From: an uncultured Lentisphaeria bacterium
GTDB lineage: Bacteria > Verrucomicrobiota > Lentisphaeria > JABSQK01 > JAJFLO01
DNA length: 32,000 nucleotides
Assembly: GCA_951812855.1 (NCBI GenBank)
Contig: OX638337.1
Span: 630,001-662,000, forward strand
Direction of reading: 5' to 3'
Part shown: piece by piece, positions 12,821 through 21,145 of the stretch
How the letters are laid out: each line of letters begins with the position of its first letter
Numbering within the stretch: position 1 is the stretch's first letter
Notes under the pieces: generated by a model
Seen by the model: only the letters and a program-made list of their open reading frames with translations
Told to the model about the DNA's origin: nothing
Databases searched by the model: none
Translations under genes and position numbers: made by a program

Positions 12821-12979
12821 ATGAGATTAGAATTCGACTATTTTCAAAATCAAATCTATGAATTTAGGTATCTGCTCTCTAATCTTAATTCGGTTCAAGA
12901 TGACGATTTAAGTCATAATGAATATTCTTATATTAAATTAATCAGTATTGCCTTAAAGTGTATAAACAAGAAATTTTGA
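12821..12979 (+). CDS. Possible small ORF (52 aa), unannotated
   Basis: It starts at an ATG and reads MRLEFDYFQNQIYEFRYLLSNLNSVQDDDLSHNEYSYIKLISIALKCINKKF*. It is below the track cutoff and has no known motif. Confidence 0.25.
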   Translation: MRLEFDYFQNQIYEFRYLLSNLNSVQDDDLSHNEYSYIKLISIALKCINKKF

Positions 12980-13005
12980 CAGTTCGAGTAGGATTAAATA
13001 AAATT

Positions 13006-13428
13006 ATGCTGCCGCTAAGGAAAAAAAAGTTTAGTGAATTACGTAAAGCTCATATCTTATTTGGACAAAAAGGTGAAAAAATAGCCTGTGATCTATTACA
13101 AAATCTCGGACTGACTATACTGCATCGTAATTTTAGAGGCCCTCACGGTGAGATCGATATCATTGCACGCGATCAAGCAGTTTTATGTATTGTTGAGGTA
13201 AAAACTCGACACCGATCACCATTTTCCCGACCTGCAGATGCCGTAACATTGAAAAAGAAACAAAACATCGTAAAAACTGCAAACAGATATCTGCGACAAC
13301 TGGGGCGTCCATCAATAATTTATCGATTTGATATAGTGGAAGTTATTTTTAATCAAAGAAGACTGATCGATATAAGATATTGGCCCAACGAGTTTTCAGC
13401 CTCAGAATTAAATCAGGGCGTATATTAA
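13006..13428 (+). CDS. yraN: YraN-family (UPF0102) endonuclease-like protein
   Basis: It shows the GEKIACDLLQNLGLTILHRNFRGPHGEIDIIARDQAVLCIVEVKTR signature. I prefer the ATG at 13006 over the track's GTG at 12958, because typical YraN proteins are about 120-140 aa. Confidence 0.85.
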   Translation: MLPLRKKKFSELRKAHILFGQKGEKIACDLLQNLGLTILHRNFRGPHGEIDIIARDQAVLCIVEVKTRHRSPFSRPADAVTLKKKQNIVKTANRYLRQLGRPSIIYRFDIVEVIFNQRRLIDIRYWPNEFSASELNQGVY

Positions 13429-13759: not shown

Positions 13760-14077
13760 TTGATTTTGATATATTTCAAATACGATGAAAAAAGAGAGCG
13801 ATTTGAAACTGGAGAATTAGACCTGGGCTTACATCAGCGAAAATTCAAGACTGGTACAGTCATTAAAATGTATTCTTATGATCTTCCGTCAGGATCACGT
13901 TCAGTAATTTCCCGTGTTCTTAACCAAAGTATTGATGAATATTTATTCAATCCGGCACTGCCAATCTTAACTGTTGATAAACCAGAACGCTATCCAGGCG
14001 AGAAGATGTTCAAAGCTGGATCGAAAGTCAGAAAACAGATAGTGGTAAGAACGGGCAGAGAGGATGATTTTCATTGA
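13760..14077 (+). CDS. Hypothetical ORF abutting the island (possibly a junction artefact)
   Basis: 105 aa with a TTG start and host-like AT-rich composition. Its TGA stop overlaps the TTG start of the methyltransferase (TTGA at 14074-14077). No motif was recognised. Confidence 0.3.
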   Translation: MILIYFKYDEKRERFETGELDLGLHQRKFKTGTVIKMYSYDLPSGSRSVISRVLNQSIDEYLFNPALPILTVDKPERYPGEKMFKAGSKVRKQIVVRTGREDDFH

Positions 14078-16824
14078 ACACCGTTGAAATAGAAGAAGCG
14101 ATATCCGCGTTAGCGGCAGAGCCGTTCGACGCGGCGGAATTCCCCTATGCGTTTCTGGAAGCGTTTGACAATAAGGCCACCACCATCAAGCGGTTGCGGT
14201 ACGGCAATGCCAACAAATCGGATATCGATGGCGGGGTTTTACAGCGCAACAACATCCATTTGGCTGTATGCAAGCAGGATAAAGTCTCCGACACCCTGGT
14301 GTTGCTCAAAGACAGTCCGGCCACAATAAAAGGCAAGACAAAATTCATACTGGCAACAGACGGCATTGATTTTGAAGCAGAAGACATAACCTCTGGTGAC
14401 ACCCTTGCTTGTAAATACAGTGATTTTCCCGACCGCTTTGGTTTTTTCCTTCCTCTTGCAGGCATTAGCACGGTCAGGCAAATCCGTGAGAACTCTGTTG
14501 ATATTCGAGCTGCCAGCCGCTTAAACAAATTGTATGTCGAGTTGCTAAGGAATAACCCTGATTGGGGTACCTCCGAACACCGCCATGATATGAACCACTT
14601 TATGGCCCGGCTAATTTTCTGTTTCTTCGCTGAAGATACCGACATATTCAACGGCGATAATTTGTTTACCGCAACCATCGAACAAATGAGTGCAAAAGAT
14701 TCGTCGAATACCCATGAGGTAATCGGTGAAATCTTTCGATCGATGAACGTTAAAATCACTGATCGAAAGAAAAAAGTATTGCGTTCATGGGCGAATGGTT
14801 TTCCCTACGTAAATGGCGGGCTTTTTTCAGCAGATACAGAAATACCGGAATTTACCAGAATTGCACGTTCCTATCTCTTACACGTTGGAAGGCTGGATTG
14901 GCAAAAAATCAACCCCGATATTTTCGGTTCGATGATACAGGCGGTGGCAGACGATGAAGAACGCGGCAGTCTCGGCATGCACTACACCAGCGTTCCCAAT
15001 ATTTTAAAGGTTCTCAATCCACTGTTTTTGGATGATCTTCATCGTCAACTGAAGCAGGCAGGAAATAACGCCAGAAAATTATTAAACCTGCGGCGGCGGA
15101 TATCGACTATTCGTGTATTTGATCCCGCCTGTGGGTCGGGTAATTTTCTTGTCATTGCGTATAAAAAACTGCGTGAAATCGAAGCTGAAATAAATGATCG
15201 GCGCGGTGAAAAAGGTCGGTCAACGGATATTCCGCTTACCAACTTCAGGGGCATTGAGCTGCGGGATTTTCCCGCCGAGATTGCACGGCTGGCGTTGATT
15301 ATAGCGCAGTACCAATGCGACTTGCGATATCTCGGTCAGAAATTAGCACTGGCTGAATTCTTGCCGTTAGACAGGGAAAATTGGATTACTTCAGGCAATG
15401 CTCTGGAAATCGATTGGCTTTCTATTTGTCCATCTACTGGAACGTCAGTAAAAATGATGGGTGATGACTTATTTAATAAACCAGTCGATCAGGCAGAGGT
15501 AGAATTTGAAAACAAAGGCGGTGAAACCTATATCTGTGGTAACCCTCCTTACCTGGGAAGTACATGGCAGTCTAAAGAGCAAAAAGCCGATTTAAAACAT
15601 ATTTTCGACGGTAAAACTAAAAACTGGAAATCGCTGGATTATGTTTCCGGCTGGTTCATGAAGGCAGCAGAGTATGGGCGTCAAACAAACGCTGTAAGTG
15701 CGTTTGTTGCGACAAATTCTATATGTCAGGGACAACACGTACCGATTTTGTGGCCGCTCATTTTCAGCACCGGTCATAAAATCGACTTCGCCCACACCTC
15801 CTTCAAATGGGCAAACCTCGCCAGCCACAATGCCGGCGTGACGGTGGCAATTATTGGGATTTCCAACAGACCCCGGAAGTACCGAAGCCTTTACTCAATC
15901 TCAGAGGAAGGAAATCCGATAGAAAAAAGAACCGGGAATATCAATGCTTACCTGATTTCAGGTGCAAATGTCATTGTTGAGAAGTCATCCAGACCTGTAT
16001 GCGAATTATCTGAAATGAAATTTGGCAACAAGCCTGTTGATGGCGGCAACCTCCTTTTGTCGAAGGCGGAGGTTTCTGAACTGGGTCTGTCTAAAAAACA
16101 ACATCGTAAATTTATCCGTCGCATAGTTGGCTCTGCGGAATTTATAAAAGGCCTGCAACGTTATTGCCTTTGGATCGAGGATCAACATTTAGATGAGGCA
16201 ATGGCTATAGAGCCGATTCAAAAACGCATAGAGGCTGTTCGAGAAAAACGCCTGGCCAGCCGAGATAAAAGTGCGAACGATATGGCGAAGCGTTCCCACC
16301 AGATGCGTGAGATGAATATTGGGAAAAGCCATTCTATCGTCGTTCCGCGTGTCAGCTCGGAAAACCGCGATTATCTGCCCTGCGGCCTGCTTCCGTCGGG
16401 AACAATCGTTTCGGACAGCTGTTTTGCACTCTATGACGCACCGCTCTGGAACATGGCAATAATAGCCTCCCGCCTGCATCTGGTTTGGATTGGTACGGTA
16501 TGCGGCAGGCTTGGAACCGGCTATAGGTATTCCAACACGCTTGGCTGGAACACTTTTCCAATCCCAAAATTGACTGAAAAGAACAAAGAAGATTTAGAAC
16601 GCTGCGCCGAGGATATACTCCTGGCACGGGAAGCACATTTTCCCGCCACCATCGCCGATCTCTATAAACCGGAAAAAATGCCGGAAAACCTCCGCCGCAA
16701 CCATGAGCAAAATGATGAAGTGTTAGAACGCATCTATATCGGCCGCCGCTTCCGCAACGACACCGAACGCCTCGAAAAGCTCTTCGAACTCTACACCCGT
16801 ATGACGAAGAAGGGGGCGGCATGA
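14074..16824 (+). CDS. MmeI/PglX-like gamma-class N6-adenine DNA methyltransferase with a C-terminal TRD
   Basis: 916 aa. Motif I is VFDPACGSGNFLV (15121-15147). Motif IV is GNPPYLG (NPPY at 15541-15552). Blocks I recall from the MmeI family: LIFCFFAEDTDIF, FPYVNGGLF, LDWQKINPDIFGSMIQ, GMHYTSVPNILKVLNPLFLDDL, KFGNKPVDGGNLLL, RYCLWI, VPRVSSENRDYLP, GRLGTGYRYSNTLGWNTFP, LYKPEKMPENLRRNHEQND. The start is TTG, with GAGAGGA 9-10 nt upstream. Confidence 0.9.
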   Translation: MNTVEIEEAISALAAEPFDAAEFPYAFLEAFDNKATTIKRLRYGNANKSDIDGGVLQRNNIHLAVCKQDKVSDTLVLLKDSPATIKGKTKFILATDGIDFEAEDITSGDTLACKYSDFPDRFGFFLPLAGISTVRQIRENSVDIRAASRLNKLYVELLRNNPDWGTSEHRHDMNHFMARLIFCFFAEDTDIFNGDNLFTATIEQMSAKDSSNTHEVIGEIFRSMNVKITDRKKKVLRSWANGFPYVNGGLFSADTEIPEFTRIARSYLLHVGRLDWQKINPDIFGSMIQAVADDEERGSLGMHYTSVPNILKVLNPLFLDDLHRQLKQAGNNARKLLNLRRRISTIRVFDPACGSGNFLVIAYKKLREIEAEINDRRGEKGRSTDIPLTNFRGIELRDFPAEIARLALIIAQYQCDLRYLGQKLALAEFLPLDRENWITSGNALEIDWLSICPSTGTSVKMMGDDLFNKPVDQAEVEFENKGGETYICGNPPYLGSTWQSKEQKADLKHIFDGKTKNWKSLDYVSGWFMKAAEYGRQTNAVSAFVATNSICQGQHVPILWPLIFSTGHKIDFAHTSFKWANLASHNAGVTVAIIGISNRPRKYRSLYSISEEGNPIEKRTGNINAYLISGANVIVEKSSRPVCELSEMKFGNKPVDGGNLLLSKAEVSELGLSKKQHRKFIRRIVGSAEFIKGLQRYCLWIEDQHLDEAMAIEPIQKRIEAVREKRLASRDKSANDMAKRSHQMREMNIGKSHSIVVPRVSSENRDYLPCGLLPSGTIVSDSCFALYDAPLWNMAIIASRLHLVWIGTVCGRLGTGYRYSNTLGWNTFPIPKLTEKNKEDLERCAEDILLAREAHFPATIADLYKPEKMPENLRRNHEQNDEVLERIYIGRRFRNDTERLEKLFELYTRMTKKGAA

Positions 16825-17225
16825 GCCAGTTCGCACCCATCCCCTATGCCGCGCTCAATTCGCGCCAGAAGGAAAACTACAACTTCCACAAGGTCGCTGC
16901 GCGTATGGCCGATTACGGCTTCAACTGCCTGCGGCTGACCGACGACTGGCAGGGGGCGGATTTCATCGCCTGCCACATCGACGGCGAGACCTTTCTGAAG
17001 GTGCAGCTCAAGGGGCGTCTGGTCATCAACCGCAAGTATCAGGGGAAGGGTATCCACGTCGCCTTCATCGATCGGGAGCGGGTGTTTGTCTATCCGCATG
17101 ATGAGATGGTCAGGCAAGCTGAAGGGCACATCAACAACACCGCGTCGTGGCGTGATCGCGGTGCTTATACGTGGCCATCAACGCCCGCCTGGGCAATCAA
17201 TTTTTTAGAAAAGTTCAGGATTTGA
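16821..17225 (+). CDS. Small PD-(D/E)xK-like (YraN/restriction-endonuclease-like) protein, putative
   Basis: 134 aa. Its ATG overlaps the methyltransferase stop (ATGA). The segment GADFIACHIDGETFLKVQLKGR (D47 at 16959-16961, QLK at 17004-17012) mirrors the YraN core GEIDIIARDQAVLCIVEVKTR found in this same window. Q replaces the usual E. Confidence 0.6.
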   Translation: MSQFAPIPYAALNSRQKENYNFHKVAARMADYGFNCLRLTDDWQGADFIACHIDGETFLKVQLKGRLVINRKYQGKGIHVAFIDRERVFVYPHDEMVRQAEGHINNTASWRDRGAYTWPSTPAWAINFLEKFRI

Positions 17226-17227
17226 CC

Positions 17228-19273
17228 ATGACCAATAATATTCCCTCCGTTTCCGTCACCTATGCCCGAAACGGCAGCTCCACCAAATCGAACGAGCTTG
17301 GGATGCGCCCGATGCAGGAGCTTGCGTATGAGAAGCGGGGCGAGCAGTATCTTCTGATAAAGTCTCCTCCCGCTTCTGGTAAAAGCCGTGCACTGATGTT
17401 CATCGCACTCGACAAGCTGCACAATCAAAACGTGGATAAAGTCATTATAGCCGTCCCTGAAAAGTTCATTGGTTTCAGCTTTGCCAATGAGCCGCTCTCT
17501 CAGTATGGCTTTTATTGGGATTGGAAAGTCGAGCCAAAGTGGAATTTGTGTAATGCACCGGGAGAAGATGGCGGCAAAGTAAACTCTGTTAAAGCTTTTC
17601 TCGACAGCGAGGATCGCGTTCTGGTCGCGACCCATGCGACCTTCCGCTTTGCCATGGACAAGTTCGGGATTGAAGCTTTTGATGATTGCCTGATCGCAGT
17701 GGACGAGTTCCATCATGTCAGCACCAACCCGGATAACAAACTCGGCAATCACCTCGGTCAGCTTATTGAACGTGACAAGGTGCATATTGTCGCTATGACG
17801 GGCTCATATTTCCGGGGCGACGCCGAAGCGGTCTTGTCCGCTCAGGACGAAGCTGAATTTGAGACGGTAATATATACCTATTACGAACAGCTCAATGGTT
17901 ATGACTGCCTGAAAACCCTGGATATAGGGTATTACTTCTATTCAGGTTCTTATGCAGACAGTATTTTGGATGTTCTGGATGCCACTGAGAAAACCATTAT
18001 TCATATTCCCAATGTCAATTCCAGAGAGAGTACAAAGGATAAACATAAAGAAGTCGAACATATTATTGAAGCACTCGGTTCATGGAAAGGTGTGGATGAG
18101 AATACAGGCTTTCATTTAGTGAAAACCCCCGATGGCACACTGCTTCGTATCGCTGATCTGGTAGACGATGAGCCCGCAAGGCGAGACAAGGTTTCGGCGG
18201 CTGTCAAGATGCCTTCAGAAAAAAATAATAGAGACTATATTGATATCATTATTGCCCTCGGCATGGCCAAAGAAGGCTTTGATTGGATATGGTGTGAGCA
18301 CGTTCTTACAATAGGCTACAGGGCAAGCCTGACTGAAATAATACAAATCATAGGCCGTGCCACTCGCGATGCTAAAGGTAAAACCCACGCCCGTTTTACC
18401 AACCTGATTGCAGAGCCGGATGCCTCTGAAGAAGCTGTAACAGATGCTGTGAATGATACGCTGAAAGCCATTGCTGCTTCCCTGTTGATGGAGCAGGTGC
18501 TCGCTCCGAAGTTCAACTTTACCCCGAAAGTGTCAACCAGCAGCCCCGGGGAAGGGTTTGACTACGGCGAAAATGGTTATGATCCAAGCAGGGAAAATGT
18601 CGGTTTCAATAGCGACACTGGCCAATTCCAAATTGAGATTAAGGGGCTTGTAGAGCCTAAGTCTGAAAATGCACAACGAATTGTCCACGAAGATTTGGAC
18701 GAGGTCATTACCGCCTTTGTTCAGGATAAGACCGCAATAGAACGCGGCCTGTTTGACGATGAGATCGTACCCGAAGAACTGACACAGCTTCGTATGGGTA
18801 AGATCGTCAAAAATAAATATCCTGAGCTTGATGAAGGTGATCAGGAAGCAGTTCGACAATATGCAATAGCCGCTTTTAATCTGACTCAAAAAGCCAAGGA
18901 AGTGGTAAATGATTCGGCAGAGTGTCAAGCTGCAGGCAATACAGCACTGATCGACGGCATTCGCAAATATGCTATGGATGTGCGTGAGCTCGATATCGAT
19001 CTGATAGATCGAATCAATCCGTTTGGAGAAGCCTACGCAATCCTTTCAAAGGCTATGAGTAAAGAAAGCCTGAAACAGGTTGCCGCCGTTATTTCTGCTA
19101 AACGAGTAAATCTTACGCCTGAAGACGCAAGGGATTTAGCCAAACGAGCGCTGAAGTTTAAGATTGAGCGCAAACGTTTGCCTGATATTAATTCTCAAGA
19201 CCCATGGGAAAAAAGAATGGCCGAAGGGGTTGCTTACTTAGCCAGAATGAAGGCGGAGGCATCTAATGGTTAA
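17228..19273 (+). CDS. SF2 DEAD/DEAH-box (ResIII-like) helicase/translocase with a long C-terminal extension
   Basis: 681 aa from the ATG at 17228, with AGGA 8 nt upstream. The track's 17171 start would overlap the previous ORF. Motif I is SPPASGKS (GKS at 17378-17386). Motif II is DEFH (17702-17713). Motif III is MTGS. Motif VI is QIIGRATR (18344-18367). Confidence 0.9.
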   Translation: MTNNIPSVSVTYARNGSSTKSNELGMRPMQELAYEKRGEQYLLIKSPPASGKSRALMFIALDKLHNQNVDKVIIAVPEKFIGFSFANEPLSQYGFYWDWKVEPKWNLCNAPGEDGGKVNSVKAFLDSEDRVLVATHATFRFAMDKFGIEAFDDCLIAVDEFHHVSTNPDNKLGNHLGQLIERDKVHIVAMTGSYFRGDAEAVLSAQDEAEFETVIYTYYEQLNGYDCLKTLDIGYYFYSGSYADSILDVLDATEKTIIHIPNVNSRESTKDKHKEVEHIIEALGSWKGVDENTGFHLVKTPDGTLLRIADLVDDEPARRDKVSAAVKMPSEKNNRDYIDIIIALGMAKEGFDWIWCEHVLTIGYRASLTEIIQIIGRATRDAKGKTHARFTNLIAEPDASEEAVTDAVNDTLKAIAASLLMEQVLAPKFNFTPKVSTSSPGEGFDYGENGYDPSRENVGFNSDTGQFQIEIKGLVEPKSENAQRIVHEDLDEVITAFVQDKTAIERGLFDDEIVPEELTQLRMGKIVKNKYPELDEGDQEAVRQYAIAAFNLTQKAKEVVNDSAECQAAGNTALIDGIRKYAMDVRELDIDLIDRINPFGEAYAILSKAMSKESLKQVAAVISAKRVNLTPEDARDLAKRALKFKIERKRLPDINSQDPWEKRMAEGVAYLARMKAEASNG

Positions 19274-20480
19274 GTCTACTTTTACGCAAGAAGACGATAA
19301 GCTGTTAGCAGAGCTTGGTGTTGTAGTTGAGAAAAAAAAGAAAGCCGCCATGACTCCACGGCAAGAGCGAATTATTGCAGGCTTTGAAGATATTCAGCAC
19401 TTTGTCGAGGAGTACGACCGGCCACCATTGCACGGTGAAAACAGAGACGTTTTCGAGCGTTTATACGCAACAAGGCTGGATCAAATTCGCACTCAAGACG
19501 AATCTCGTCAGTTAATCAAAGCGTTGGACTATCAAGGATTACTGTCTGATAACCTGAAAATAGCTGAACCTGACGCTGAATATGAAACCGATGACGAGCT
19601 TCTGGCTGCTCTTGGTGTCGAAAGACCAACAAAAGAAGGTGATATTGCCTTTCTTAGGCATGTTAAATCGCAAGCTGAAAGAAAAGCGGCGGAAGAAATA
19701 GCCAGCCGAACCCCTTGTAAAGACTTTGAAAAGTTCAAACCACTTTTCGATAAAGTGCAAAGTGATTTAAAACATGGTCTGGTAGAGGCAAAGTTGCTTG
19801 AAGATCAAAAAGGGCAATCTGTGATGGCCCAGATAAACCAGGGCGACTGGTTTATCGTAAACGGGCAAAAAGCCTACGTTGCAAAATTAAGTGATCGGCG
19901 TATCCATGGTTTTGATAACAACGACTATCGCTTACGGGTCATCTACGATAACGGAACCGAAAGTGACCTGCTGCTGCGGTCGTTGCAAAAAGCACTCTAT
20001 GAAGATGAGGCAGGTAGAAGGATCATCTCACGTTCTGCCGGGCCGCTATTTGATGATGTTGCAGAGGAAGAAGATTTGGCGAGTGGGACAATTTATGTGC
20101 TTAGAAGCAAATCCAATCATCCCGTGATCGAAGAGAATAGAGCGGTGATTCATAAAATCGGAATTACCGGGGGAGACGTAAAAACGAGAGTATCAAACGC
20201 CAAACTTGATCCTACCTATCTTATGGCAGAGGTTGAAATCGTCGCTACTTACGATCTGTTCAATATCAGTCGAGGTAAACTGGAAAATCTACTTCACAGG
20301 TTTTTTGAGAGTGCCAGGCTCGAAATAGAAGTGCCAGATAGATTTGGTAATCCTGTAATCCCACAAGAGTGGTTTCTGGTGCCTCTGCCTGTTATTAATG
20401 AAGTGGTAGAAAAAATCAAAGACGGGAGTATTGCCGGCTATAAATATGACCGTAAAAAGGCAATGCTTGTTAAGGACTAA
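19266..20480 (+). CDS. T5orf172/MUG113 (GIY-YIG superfamily-like) domain protein
   Basis: 404 aa. The C-terminal block, about aa 274-385 (nt 20085-20420), reads GTIYVLRSKSNHP..HKIGITGGDVKTRVSN..KLENLLHRFF..PQEWFLVPL. It matches the T5orf172 pattern as I recall it. The N-terminal half is unassigned and carries a duplicated DDxLLAxLGV motif. Confidence 0.8.
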   Translation: MVKSTFTQEDDKLLAELGVVVEKKKKAAMTPRQERIIAGFEDIQHFVEEYDRPPLHGENRDVFERLYATRLDQIRTQDESRQLIKALDYQGLLSDNLKIAEPDAEYETDDELLAALGVERPTKEGDIAFLRHVKSQAERKAAEEIASRTPCKDFEKFKPLFDKVQSDLKHGLVEAKLLEDQKGQSVMAQINQGDWFIVNGQKAYVAKLSDRRIHGFDNNDYRLRVIYDNGTESDLLLRSLQKALYEDEAGRRIISRSAGPLFDDVAEEEDLASGTIYVLRSKSNHPVIEENRAVIHKIGITGGDVKTRVSNAKLDPTYLMAEVEIVATYDLFNISRGKLENLLHRFFESARLEIEVPDRFGNPVIPQEWFLVPLPVINEVVEKIKDGSIAGYKYDRKKAMLVKD

Positions 20481-20553
20481 GGCTCGTTTGTTTGTTATTG
20501 ATTGAGGATGTAATGAACTGCAGCATTTTGAATAAGTTTGATCAGGTTTCAGA

Positions 20554-20817
20554 TTATGTGTGCCAGGTTTCCACTATTTCATCCTCCAACAACGTCCTTA
20601 GATCCTGTAAAATTTCCATTTCCGCTTCCAATTGTTCTTCACTGAACAAACTACATGCTTTACCAAATCCAACTATCGCCGGGACATTAAGAGTTCCGGA
20701 GCGCAGCCCGTTTTCATGCCCGCCTCCATGAATTACAGGTACTAAATCATCCTTAATTTCATTTTTTATACACCCGTTAATCAAATATTCTTCGAGCAGA
20801 TAGGATCTCCCACTCAT
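20554..20817 (-). pseudogene. Cysteine desulfurase (NifS/IscS-family) internal fragment
   Basis: An 87-aa ORF contains [28 protein letters not shown], the conserved HGGGQE-GLRSGT-NV block of class V aminotransferase desulfurases. The N-terminal PLP-binding half and the C-terminal active-site Cys region are both absent. Confidence 0.7.

Positions 20818-21060: not shown

Positions 21061-21145
<85 letters not shown>

Follow-up and report, generated by a model that had tools for sequence, protein, structure and literature searches.

Results

A small coupled gene between a methyltransferase and a helicase

What is a 134-amino-acid (aa) protein of an unnamed family doing between an MmeI-like DNA methyltransferase and a DEAD/DEAH helicase, and is it the nuclease that the methyltransferase lacks? 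This question is raised by a 32,000-nucleotide (nt) stretch of DNA from an uncultured Lentisphaeria bacterium (contig OX638337.1, positions 630,001 to 662,000), referred to here as the window, in which the small gene lies at 16821-17225 on the + strand, like every other feature of the operon described below. The three large genes around it are a YeeA(DnmA)/YeeB/YeeC-type cluster. A sequence-only reading of the window had described the small gene as YraN-like and as possibly the nuclease detached from the MmeI-like enzyme. Using its open reading frame (ORF) and translation, its homologs, an AlphaFold2 model and Foldseek searches, we assign it instead to an Hjc/DREN-like branch of the PD-(D/E)xK nuclease fold. 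On balance, it is probably an active, oligomeric, Mg-dependent DREN/Hjc-like nuclease, expressed through coupling to the operon as a piece of exchangeable cargo; what we infer in this statement is the catalysis, the oligomeric state and the biological role. The closest characterised relatives of the small protein are the DREN (DUF4365) nuclease of SPARDA and I-Ssp6803I. What is new is the unnamed family; the superfamily and the DREN-type site are known.

The ATG of the small gene overlaps the TGA stop of the upstream 916-aa MmeI-like gene in the sequence ATGA (16821-16824), and a Shine-Dalgarno-like GAAGGGGG precedes it at 16809-16816, so that the whole start region spans 16809-16824. The ATG of the helicase gene (17228) follows 2 nt past the small-gene stop. 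Promoter-like and terminator-like sites are not enriched near the small ORF and none is prominent within the operon; therefore, the four genes seem to form a single translationally coupled unit. The small gene is translated from the operon mRNA via translational coupling, its upstream contact being the ATGA overlap and its downstream one the start codon of the helicase gene. Its homologs form 2796 clusters at 90% identity and 946 representatives at 50% identity, and given so many homologous clusters it is a real gene rather than a chance ORF. None of these homologs carries a Pfam domain, and all are named 'hypothetical'. Reading of the sequence and its translation bears out the ORF boundaries, the length of 134 aa, the start/stop overlap and the numbering of D47, Q62 and K64 that had been proposed, all three residues lying in the core GADFIACHIDGETFLKVQLKGR. 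The GC-richness pointed out earlier is likewise present: 36 of the 60 nt at 16801-16860 are G or C, and the highest-GC 405-nt stretch in the entire 32 kb (59.5%) starts at 16789. The island as a whole (13800-20600) has a GC content of 44-59%; the neighbouring 400-nt windows have about 31-37% and host genes 35-41%.

Predicted fold and active site of the small protein

The AlphaFold2 model of the small protein, built with 53 homologs as input, has a predicted local distance difference test score (pLDDT) of 93.9 and a predicted template modelling (pTM) score of 0.85. It consists of a helix (residues 14-30), three strands (34-43, 46-52 and 58-63), a loop with a short strand, two further strands (78-84 and 87-92) and C-terminal helices. 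Foldseek matches to this model among PDB and viral structures are nearly all PD-(D/E)xK proteins, with probabilities of ~1.0 and template modelling (TM) scores of 0.40-0.53. The 27 best PDB matches are Hjc or I-Ssp6803I, except for the N-terminal domain of the restriction endonuclease Eco15I at rank 18. Archaeal Hjc structures (2wcz, 2wiz, 4tkd, 1gef) match with E values from 5e-4, and I-Ssp6803I has the highest TM-score among PDB matches with E<=0.01 (0.47-0.48, at 15-21% identity). Lower ranks include SPARDA DREN, RecU, tRNA-splicing endonuclease and the MmeI-like DrdV (weak, E ~0.3); the DREN structures 9jsz, 9qcc and 9vx6 are matched with probabilities of 0.57-1.00 and TM-scores of 0.39-0.47. 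The viral matches are PD(D/E)XK endonucleases and Holliday junction resolvases. Thus, the restriction-endonuclease fold that had been suspected from the sequence is predicted with high confidence from both structure sets, and we regard it as very likely correct.

Conservation was counted over 150 diverse family representatives at 50% identity. The four residues of the putative active site are each kept in about 97% of them: E18 (codon 16872-16874; E in 143/147) in the first helix as a probable auxiliary acidic residue, D47 (16959-16961; D in 145/148) at the start of strand 2 as a predicted metal ligand, and, within the Q62-L63-K64 codons (17004-17012) at the end of strand 3, Q62 (147/150) and K64 (146/150), which would form the QxK half of the site. 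D41, D42, H52, K72-Y73 and H93-D94 are conserved as well. An Asp at the start of strand 2 and an xK motif at the end of strand 3 are the canonical PD-(D/E)xK positions (PMC3424549), and Gln or Asn replacements in the strand-3 motif are documented (PMC1189080); the family has both the conserved strand-2 Asp and a (D/E/Q/N)-x-K on strand 3. Whether Q62 might be Glu in relatives had been left as a question by the sequence-only reading, and the answer is that Glu occurs at this position in none of the 150. D47, Q62 and K64, the three residues it had singled out, are all retained, together with E18.

The same combination of residues is known from DREN, whose catalytic triad in NbaSPARDA is D41/Q60/K62, with D41 and Q60 binding Mg (PMC12205087). 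The D41A/Q60A/K62A mutant of DREN has lost nuclease activity, and the domain has an Hjc-like topology with a TnsA-like site (bioRxiv 10.1101/2023.06.08.544223). D47 of the small protein is the equivalent of DREN D41, and Q62 and K64 correspond to Q60 and K62. Because Gln is conserved in the family and never replaced by Glu, Q62 is a family hallmark and not a lesion; and since D...QxK is an experimentally proven active site in DREN, the Gln is not a sign of inactivation. The earlier doubt that Gln for Glu makes an inactive or odd site is thus not supported. By analogy with DREN, the small protein may well be a metal-dependent phosphodiesterase in which D47 and Q62 would hold Mg2+ while K64 and E18 would complete the active site, and it would cut nucleic acid as a dimer or tetramer, like its structural relatives.

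A catalytically dead DNA-binding or regulatory protein that keeps only the fold would account for the Gln in place of Glu, for the very small size and for solo copies of the gene that stand without a visible immunity partner. We consider such a protein improbable, however: the complete DREN-type triad and E18 are strongly conserved, and the same triad is catalytically active in DREN. Tandem fusions of the domain moreover show what decay looks like, one copy having lost its motifs (GADF to GVSI, QLK to RVR), in contrast to the intact copy beside it.

Relationship to DREN, Hjc and I-Ssp6803I

Pfam, NCBIfam, PADLOC and PHROGs give no significant family for the small ORF, and two hidden Markov model profiles (A1 and A3) run against all PDB sequences return nothing meaningful. 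The DUF4365 profile (PF14280) does not match the window protein at E<=5, which makes it a member of a sister family rather than of DUF4365 itself; weak DUF4365 matches are found in 11 of 48 diverse family members (best E value 0.001), and a Mrr_cat_2 match in one. The small protein shares with DREN an Hjc-like topology and the triad (D47/Q62/K64 for D41/Q60/K62). It differs in the D-to-Q spacing (14 residues rather than 18), in a C-terminal extension with H93-D94, W110 and W118-P119, and in being a stand-alone protein of 134 aa without an APAZ fusion or extra domain. No Argonaute partner is present among the genes adjacent to it in the window, although no Argonaute-specific search was made; in the window and in most related loci the adjacent genes are the MmeI-like methyltransferase, the helicase and the T5orf172 protein, and in other loci the neighbours are unrelated. 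The DREN-type D...QxK module therefore also exists as a stand-alone protein, outside Argonaute systems, and an unannotated family of ~2800 clusters now has an assigned active site that can be tested.

Hjc provides the best Foldseek matches, is of similar size and has the same order of an acidic helix-1 residue (E18 in the small protein), then D, then xK. The Hjc profile (PF01870) gives no Pfam match for the small protein, which has E18, D47 and K64 in place but Gln at the second Glu, and the second core helix of Hjc is replaced by a loop. The contexts also differ, the small gene lying in a defence operon and not among recombination genes, save for one insertion between ruvA and ruvB that is described below. 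I-Ssp6803I is, like the small protein, a small stand-alone PD-(D/E)xK protein (about 150 aa), and DREN is reportedly similar to it and forms tetramers in the same way (PMC12205087). The small protein differs from I-Ssp6803I in sequence (15-21% identity) and in that its gene is not intron-encoded.

The domain also occurs in fusion proteins (P0270, P0173, P0133, P0123, P0125, P0127 and P0132). It is joined to Mrr_N, placed where the Mrr nuclease domain normally sits, as well as to Nmad3, to ankyrin repeats and to a degenerate second copy of itself. This pairing of a degenerate with an intact copy in tandem implies that the working unit is oligomeric.

Comparison with YraN and the MmeI nuclease domain

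The window contains a bona fide YraN gene (12958-13428), just outside the island, which has host-like composition and matches UPF0102 (PF02021) at 1.7e-26. The small ORF is unmatched by the UPF0102 profile, and BLASTP of the small protein against the window YraN yields no alignment at E<=100. The two had been said to line up residue for residue, but the spacing is D-x12-E-x-K in YraN and D-x14-Q-x-K in the small protein, so that two gap positions are needed for an alignment. What they share is the superfamily and a similar-looking G-x-D...(E/Q)-x-K-x-R hairpin; beyond this they differ in the Glu of YraN, which is an invariant Gln in the small family, and in the two extra residues. With neither a profile match nor a BLASTP alignment, the YraN-like label is not supported.

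A resemblance to the nuclease block of MmeI had also been proposed. In MmeI this block is D70-x9-E80-x-K82 (PMC2731913), as against D-x14-QxK here, and the likeness, x9 with E versus x14 with Q, is merely the generic superfamily pattern. Besides the superfamily, the two have in common an acidic residue that ends strand 1 (E51 in MmeI; D41/D42 in the small protein). The MmeI_N profile (PF20464) does not match the small ORF, and hhalign of the small family against the N-terminal domain of the YeeA-type methyltransferase gives a probability of 0.5%. By these two results, the small ORF has no detectable relation to the MmeI N-terminal domain.

Distribution of the small gene among related operons

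A genome search with the small protein finds it inside the operon, between methyltransferase and helicase, at ~59 of 80 loci, usually 6 nt before the helicase. The converse search gives a different picture. We collected 80 metagenome loci with the closest relatives of the window helicase (74-83% identity), 76 of which have enough upstream sequence to be assessed, and only 10 of these 76 contain the small gene (87% do not). At 57 of the 76 loci an MmeI-like gene lies upstream and the small gene is absent; methyltransferase and helicase are separated by 27-90 nt in 18 of the 57, and the remaining loci have other genes between them. The closest helicase relative of all (L086, 83%) belongs to a locus without the small gene. 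At least 23 gains or losses of the gene are needed on a helicase tree of 130 tips, and helicases that are 98-99% identical are nevertheless discordant for its presence. Thus, the small gene is not a core subunit of the YeeA/YeeB/YeeC-type system. The window's three large genes match that system, and the 134-aa gene is an optional fourth gene outside the described three-gene core; that it is optional cargo we regard as likely.

These counts bear directly on the idea that the small protein is a detached but required nuclease subunit, standing in for the D...ExK domain that the MmeI-like enzyme has lost from its N terminus. The loss itself is real. In a profile alignment, D70, E80 and K82 of MmeI fall on G54, A64 and C66 of the window protein, within a conserved 'SDxGGVLQxNNIHI(A/K)x(C/A)' block, so the methyltransferase is without the catalytic triad, as the sequence-only reading had held and in agreement with Morgan 2009 (PMC2731913). 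The small gene, for its part, is translationally coupled to the methyltransferase gene and encodes a nuclease fold. However, the same degenerate N-terminal domain occurs without the small gene in 87% of the assessable closest-helicase loci, and because its motif is identical in loci with and without the gene, there is no sign of compensation for a lost nuclease. The absent homology to MmeI_N and the different spacing and strand-3 residue described above count against this idea as well. Furthermore, the T5orf172/GIY-YIG-like protein has long been the proposed nuclease of the system (PMC2731913), and in Vibrio crassostreae it is the inactivation of yeeAB that removes resistance to one phage group, the small gene being unmentioned at that locus. 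The detached-subunit proposal is thus largely refuted by distribution, and we consider it very improbable: the small ORF as the missing MmeI nuclease is tempting but, in our judgement, wrong, and the T5orf172/GIY-YIG-like protein stays the candidate for the core nuclease.

A precise cassette-exchange slot

Comparison of close pairs of loci that differ in content shows where the variable part begins and ends. Nucleotide homology of 88-94% ends at the methyltransferase stop and resumes, at 85-93%, from the helicase start. Across loci L001-L165 this slot (window 16824-17228) holds more than 12 unrelated gene families: the small gene; unknown proteins of 226-290 aa (e.g., 253, 277 and 283); RhuM; Bro-N; PDDEXK_4 and NucS_C-like nucleases, which together with the small gene make three unrelated PD-(D/E)xK families; and the toxin modules ParE/RHH, BrnT-like and RelE-like. 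The methyltransferase-helicase junction is therefore a precise cassette-exchange slot. To us this is the most interesting by-product of the analysis, and the slot in YeeA/YeeB/YeeC-type operons could be searched for novel small genes of defence or counter-defence. Cassettes between the methyltransferase stop and the helicase start are swapped by recombination in the conserved flanks, and the small gene may act as an auxiliary or independent nuclease, as defence cargo or as a selfish gene, riding on operon expression.

In the window, the traces of such an exchange extend beyond the small gene itself. A tract of ~1 kb (16474-17473) centred on it is much closer to alphaproteobacterial alleles of high GC content than the remainder of the operon, synonymous sites included, as judged from nucleotide identity, four-fold sites and GC content at third codon positions (GC3). 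Nucleotide identity to alphaproteobacterial operons peaks at 0.83-0.92 (16874-17073), falls to shoulders of 0.75-0.83 for ~350 bp to the left and to the right, and lies at 0.55-0.72 in the background. GC3 is 0.75 in the small gene (0.84 in its first 90 codons), compared with 0.49 in the methyltransferase, 0.47 in the helicase, 0.40 in the fourth gene and 0.26-0.36 in host genes. At four-fold sites, identity of the small gene to alphaproteobacterial alleles is 0.59-0.71 for six of the eight loci compared and 0.41 and 0.54 for the remaining two, whereas values are 0.30-0.39 for the methyltransferase, 0.32-0.39 for the helicase and 0.20-0.31 for the fourth gene; the final 120 methyltransferase codons and the initial 100 helicase codons have values in between. 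The cassette and ~350 bp on each side are thus of younger, higher-GC origin than the rest of the island, as is expected from flank recombination bringing the cassette from a high-GC donor.

Solo copies and the homing alternative

Not all copies lie in the slot. At ~16 assessable genome loci the small gene stands without any of the three operon genes nearby, next to unrelated neighbours (GNAT, DSBA, an Abi_2-like protein, multicopper oxidase, transposase, ruvA/ruvB), among which we found no shared partner gene. Copies are also present on plasmids. No mobile unit exceeding the ORF was found, homology between contexts ending at the ORF ends.

In Paenochrobactrum gallinarii (L084:9971-10408), a 50%-identical copy lies between ruvA and ruvB and overlaps the ruvA stop, the gene row being ruvC-ruvA-X-ruvB-thioesterase with X as the small-gene copy. 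Either this copy inserted selfishly between two conserved genes, or its position hints at an activity related to junctions.

Several of these features would suit a selfish homing-type endonuclease that cuts empty junctions (yeeA/yeeB, ruvA/ruvB) and spreads by repair copying with co-conversion of the flanks: (i) I-Ssp6803I leads the closest PDB matches by TM-score. (ii) The distribution is patchy, with rapid gain and loss. (iii) Copies in different contexts are homologous over the ORF and no further. (iv) The ruvA-ruvB insertion again has a start/stop overlap. (v) The younger, higher-GC sequence that reaches ~350 bp into both flanking genes resembles a co-conversion tract. However, the solo contexts are heterogeneous and present no single repeated target site, there is no intron or intein context, and 50,697 phage records contain no small-gene match. 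Since many unrelated cassettes share the slot, ordinary homologous recombination within its conserved flanks is enough. We therefore think homing rather unlikely, and continue to favour a DREN/Hjc-like nuclease carried as cargo.

A possible partnership with the operon

Several points weigh against this preferred reading. On the structural side, TM-scores against known structures are modest (0.40-0.48), in place of the helix that usually follows strand 3 the model has a loop and a short strand at residues 65-77, and the clustering in space of E18, D47, Q62 and K64 is deduced solely from their secondary-structure positions. On the genomic side, the small gene is constantly immediately upstream of the helicase in 50+ loci, with a gap of ~6 nt and in the same orientation. 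In a mirror-tree comparison its divergence correlates with that of the helicase (r = 0.50) no less than the divergence of the methyltransferase does (r = 0.46). Given the fixed position and correlated divergence, a physical partnership is possible when the gene is present. In addition, a 134-aa protein has no obvious sensor domain to keep an active nuclease harmless in solo contexts.

Such a partnership could make the small nuclease an accessory effector that plugs into the YeeA/YeeB/YeeC machine, for example by being recruited by the helicase, and adds to or changes its DNA cleavage, much as short-Argonaute systems have interchangeable effector domains. The fixed placement before the helicase with translational coupling and the partial co-divergence just mentioned point this way, as does the phylogenetic clustering of the gene's presence (23 changes versus 43.8 in shuffles). 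The two other, unrelated PD-(D/E)xK families in the same slot (PDDEXK_4 and NucS_C-like) and the fact that DREN-type domains are known as plug-in effectors are also consistent with it. Yet most close relatives have the three core genes without the small gene, which is also found solo in unrelated neighbourhoods, and among the other occupants of the slot are toxin-antitoxin pairs, RhuM and Bro-N, none of them an effector of the system. An accessory effector is accordingly a possibility that we hold to be unlikely. If it were true, the junction of methyltransferase and helicase would serve as a dedicated 'effector socket' that bacteria exchange with one another. More broadly, and only tentatively, a free-standing DREN-like endonuclease could be travelling here as a mobile cassette, either as a homing-type selfish gene aimed at the junctions of conserved operon genes (yeeA/yeeB, ruvA/ruvB) or as a plug-in effector that re-arms a helicase-coupled MmeI-like restriction system.

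The operon and its genomic context

The YeeA/DnmA-type methyltransferase with its target-recognition domain (14074-16824, 916 aa, TTG start) has the full set of five MmeI Pfam domains, and PDB 5hr4, the structure of MmeI, is matched at 6.7e-143. The YeeB-type DEAD/DEAH helicase (17228-19273, 681 aa) has Pfam DEAD, ResIII and Helicase_C matches and is called in the public record. It is followed by a YeeC-type T5orf172/MUG113 (GIY-YIG-like) protein (19266-20480), identified with Pfam, whose gene overlaps the helicase stop by 8 nt. A homologous operon on the RefSeq plasmid NZ_CP115780.1 is annotated as 'DNA methyltransferase - hypothetical protein - DEAD/DEAH box helicase - GIY-YIG nuclease family protein'. 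MmeI homologs without D70/E80/K82, with a DEAD helicase and a GIY-YIG-like protein encoded next to them, have been described previously (Morgan 2009, PMC2731913). The YeeA/YeeB/YeeC-type locus of Bacillus subtilis protected neither against the three phages tested nor against the uptake of transforming DNA (PMC9973331); Vibrio crassostreae with inactivated yeeAB was no longer resistant to one group of phages.

The N-terminal domain of the methyltransferase (14074-14598) has a strongly conserved SDxGGVLQxNNIHI block and no nuclease triad. Its AlphaFold model has a pLDDT of 77, and Foldseek returns weak matches (E>=0.02, TM<=0.26) to domains resembling the anticodon-binding domain of class-II aminoacyl-tRNA synthetases, with MmeI and nucleases unmatched. 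Perhaps its role is the docking of the helicase or of a nuclease.

The island adjoins a tRNA-Leu(tag) gene (21061-21145). There is no integrase at the island, and no att-like direct repeats were found flanking it. The TTG start of the MmeI-like gene (MNTVEIEE..., cf. MNAVEIEE of homologs) is preceded by GAGAGGA and overlaps by 4 nt a 105-aa ORF (13760-14077) that has a host-like GC3 of 0.31 and is uncalled in the public record. Within the methyltransferase gene, GC3 is a mosaic ranging from 0.31 to 0.67. Elsewhere, some operons appear decayed or interrupted: the helicase is fragmented in L036, the helicase match is split in L021, and a small-gene match lies inside the helicase span in L142, which suggests that the system is frequently eroded.

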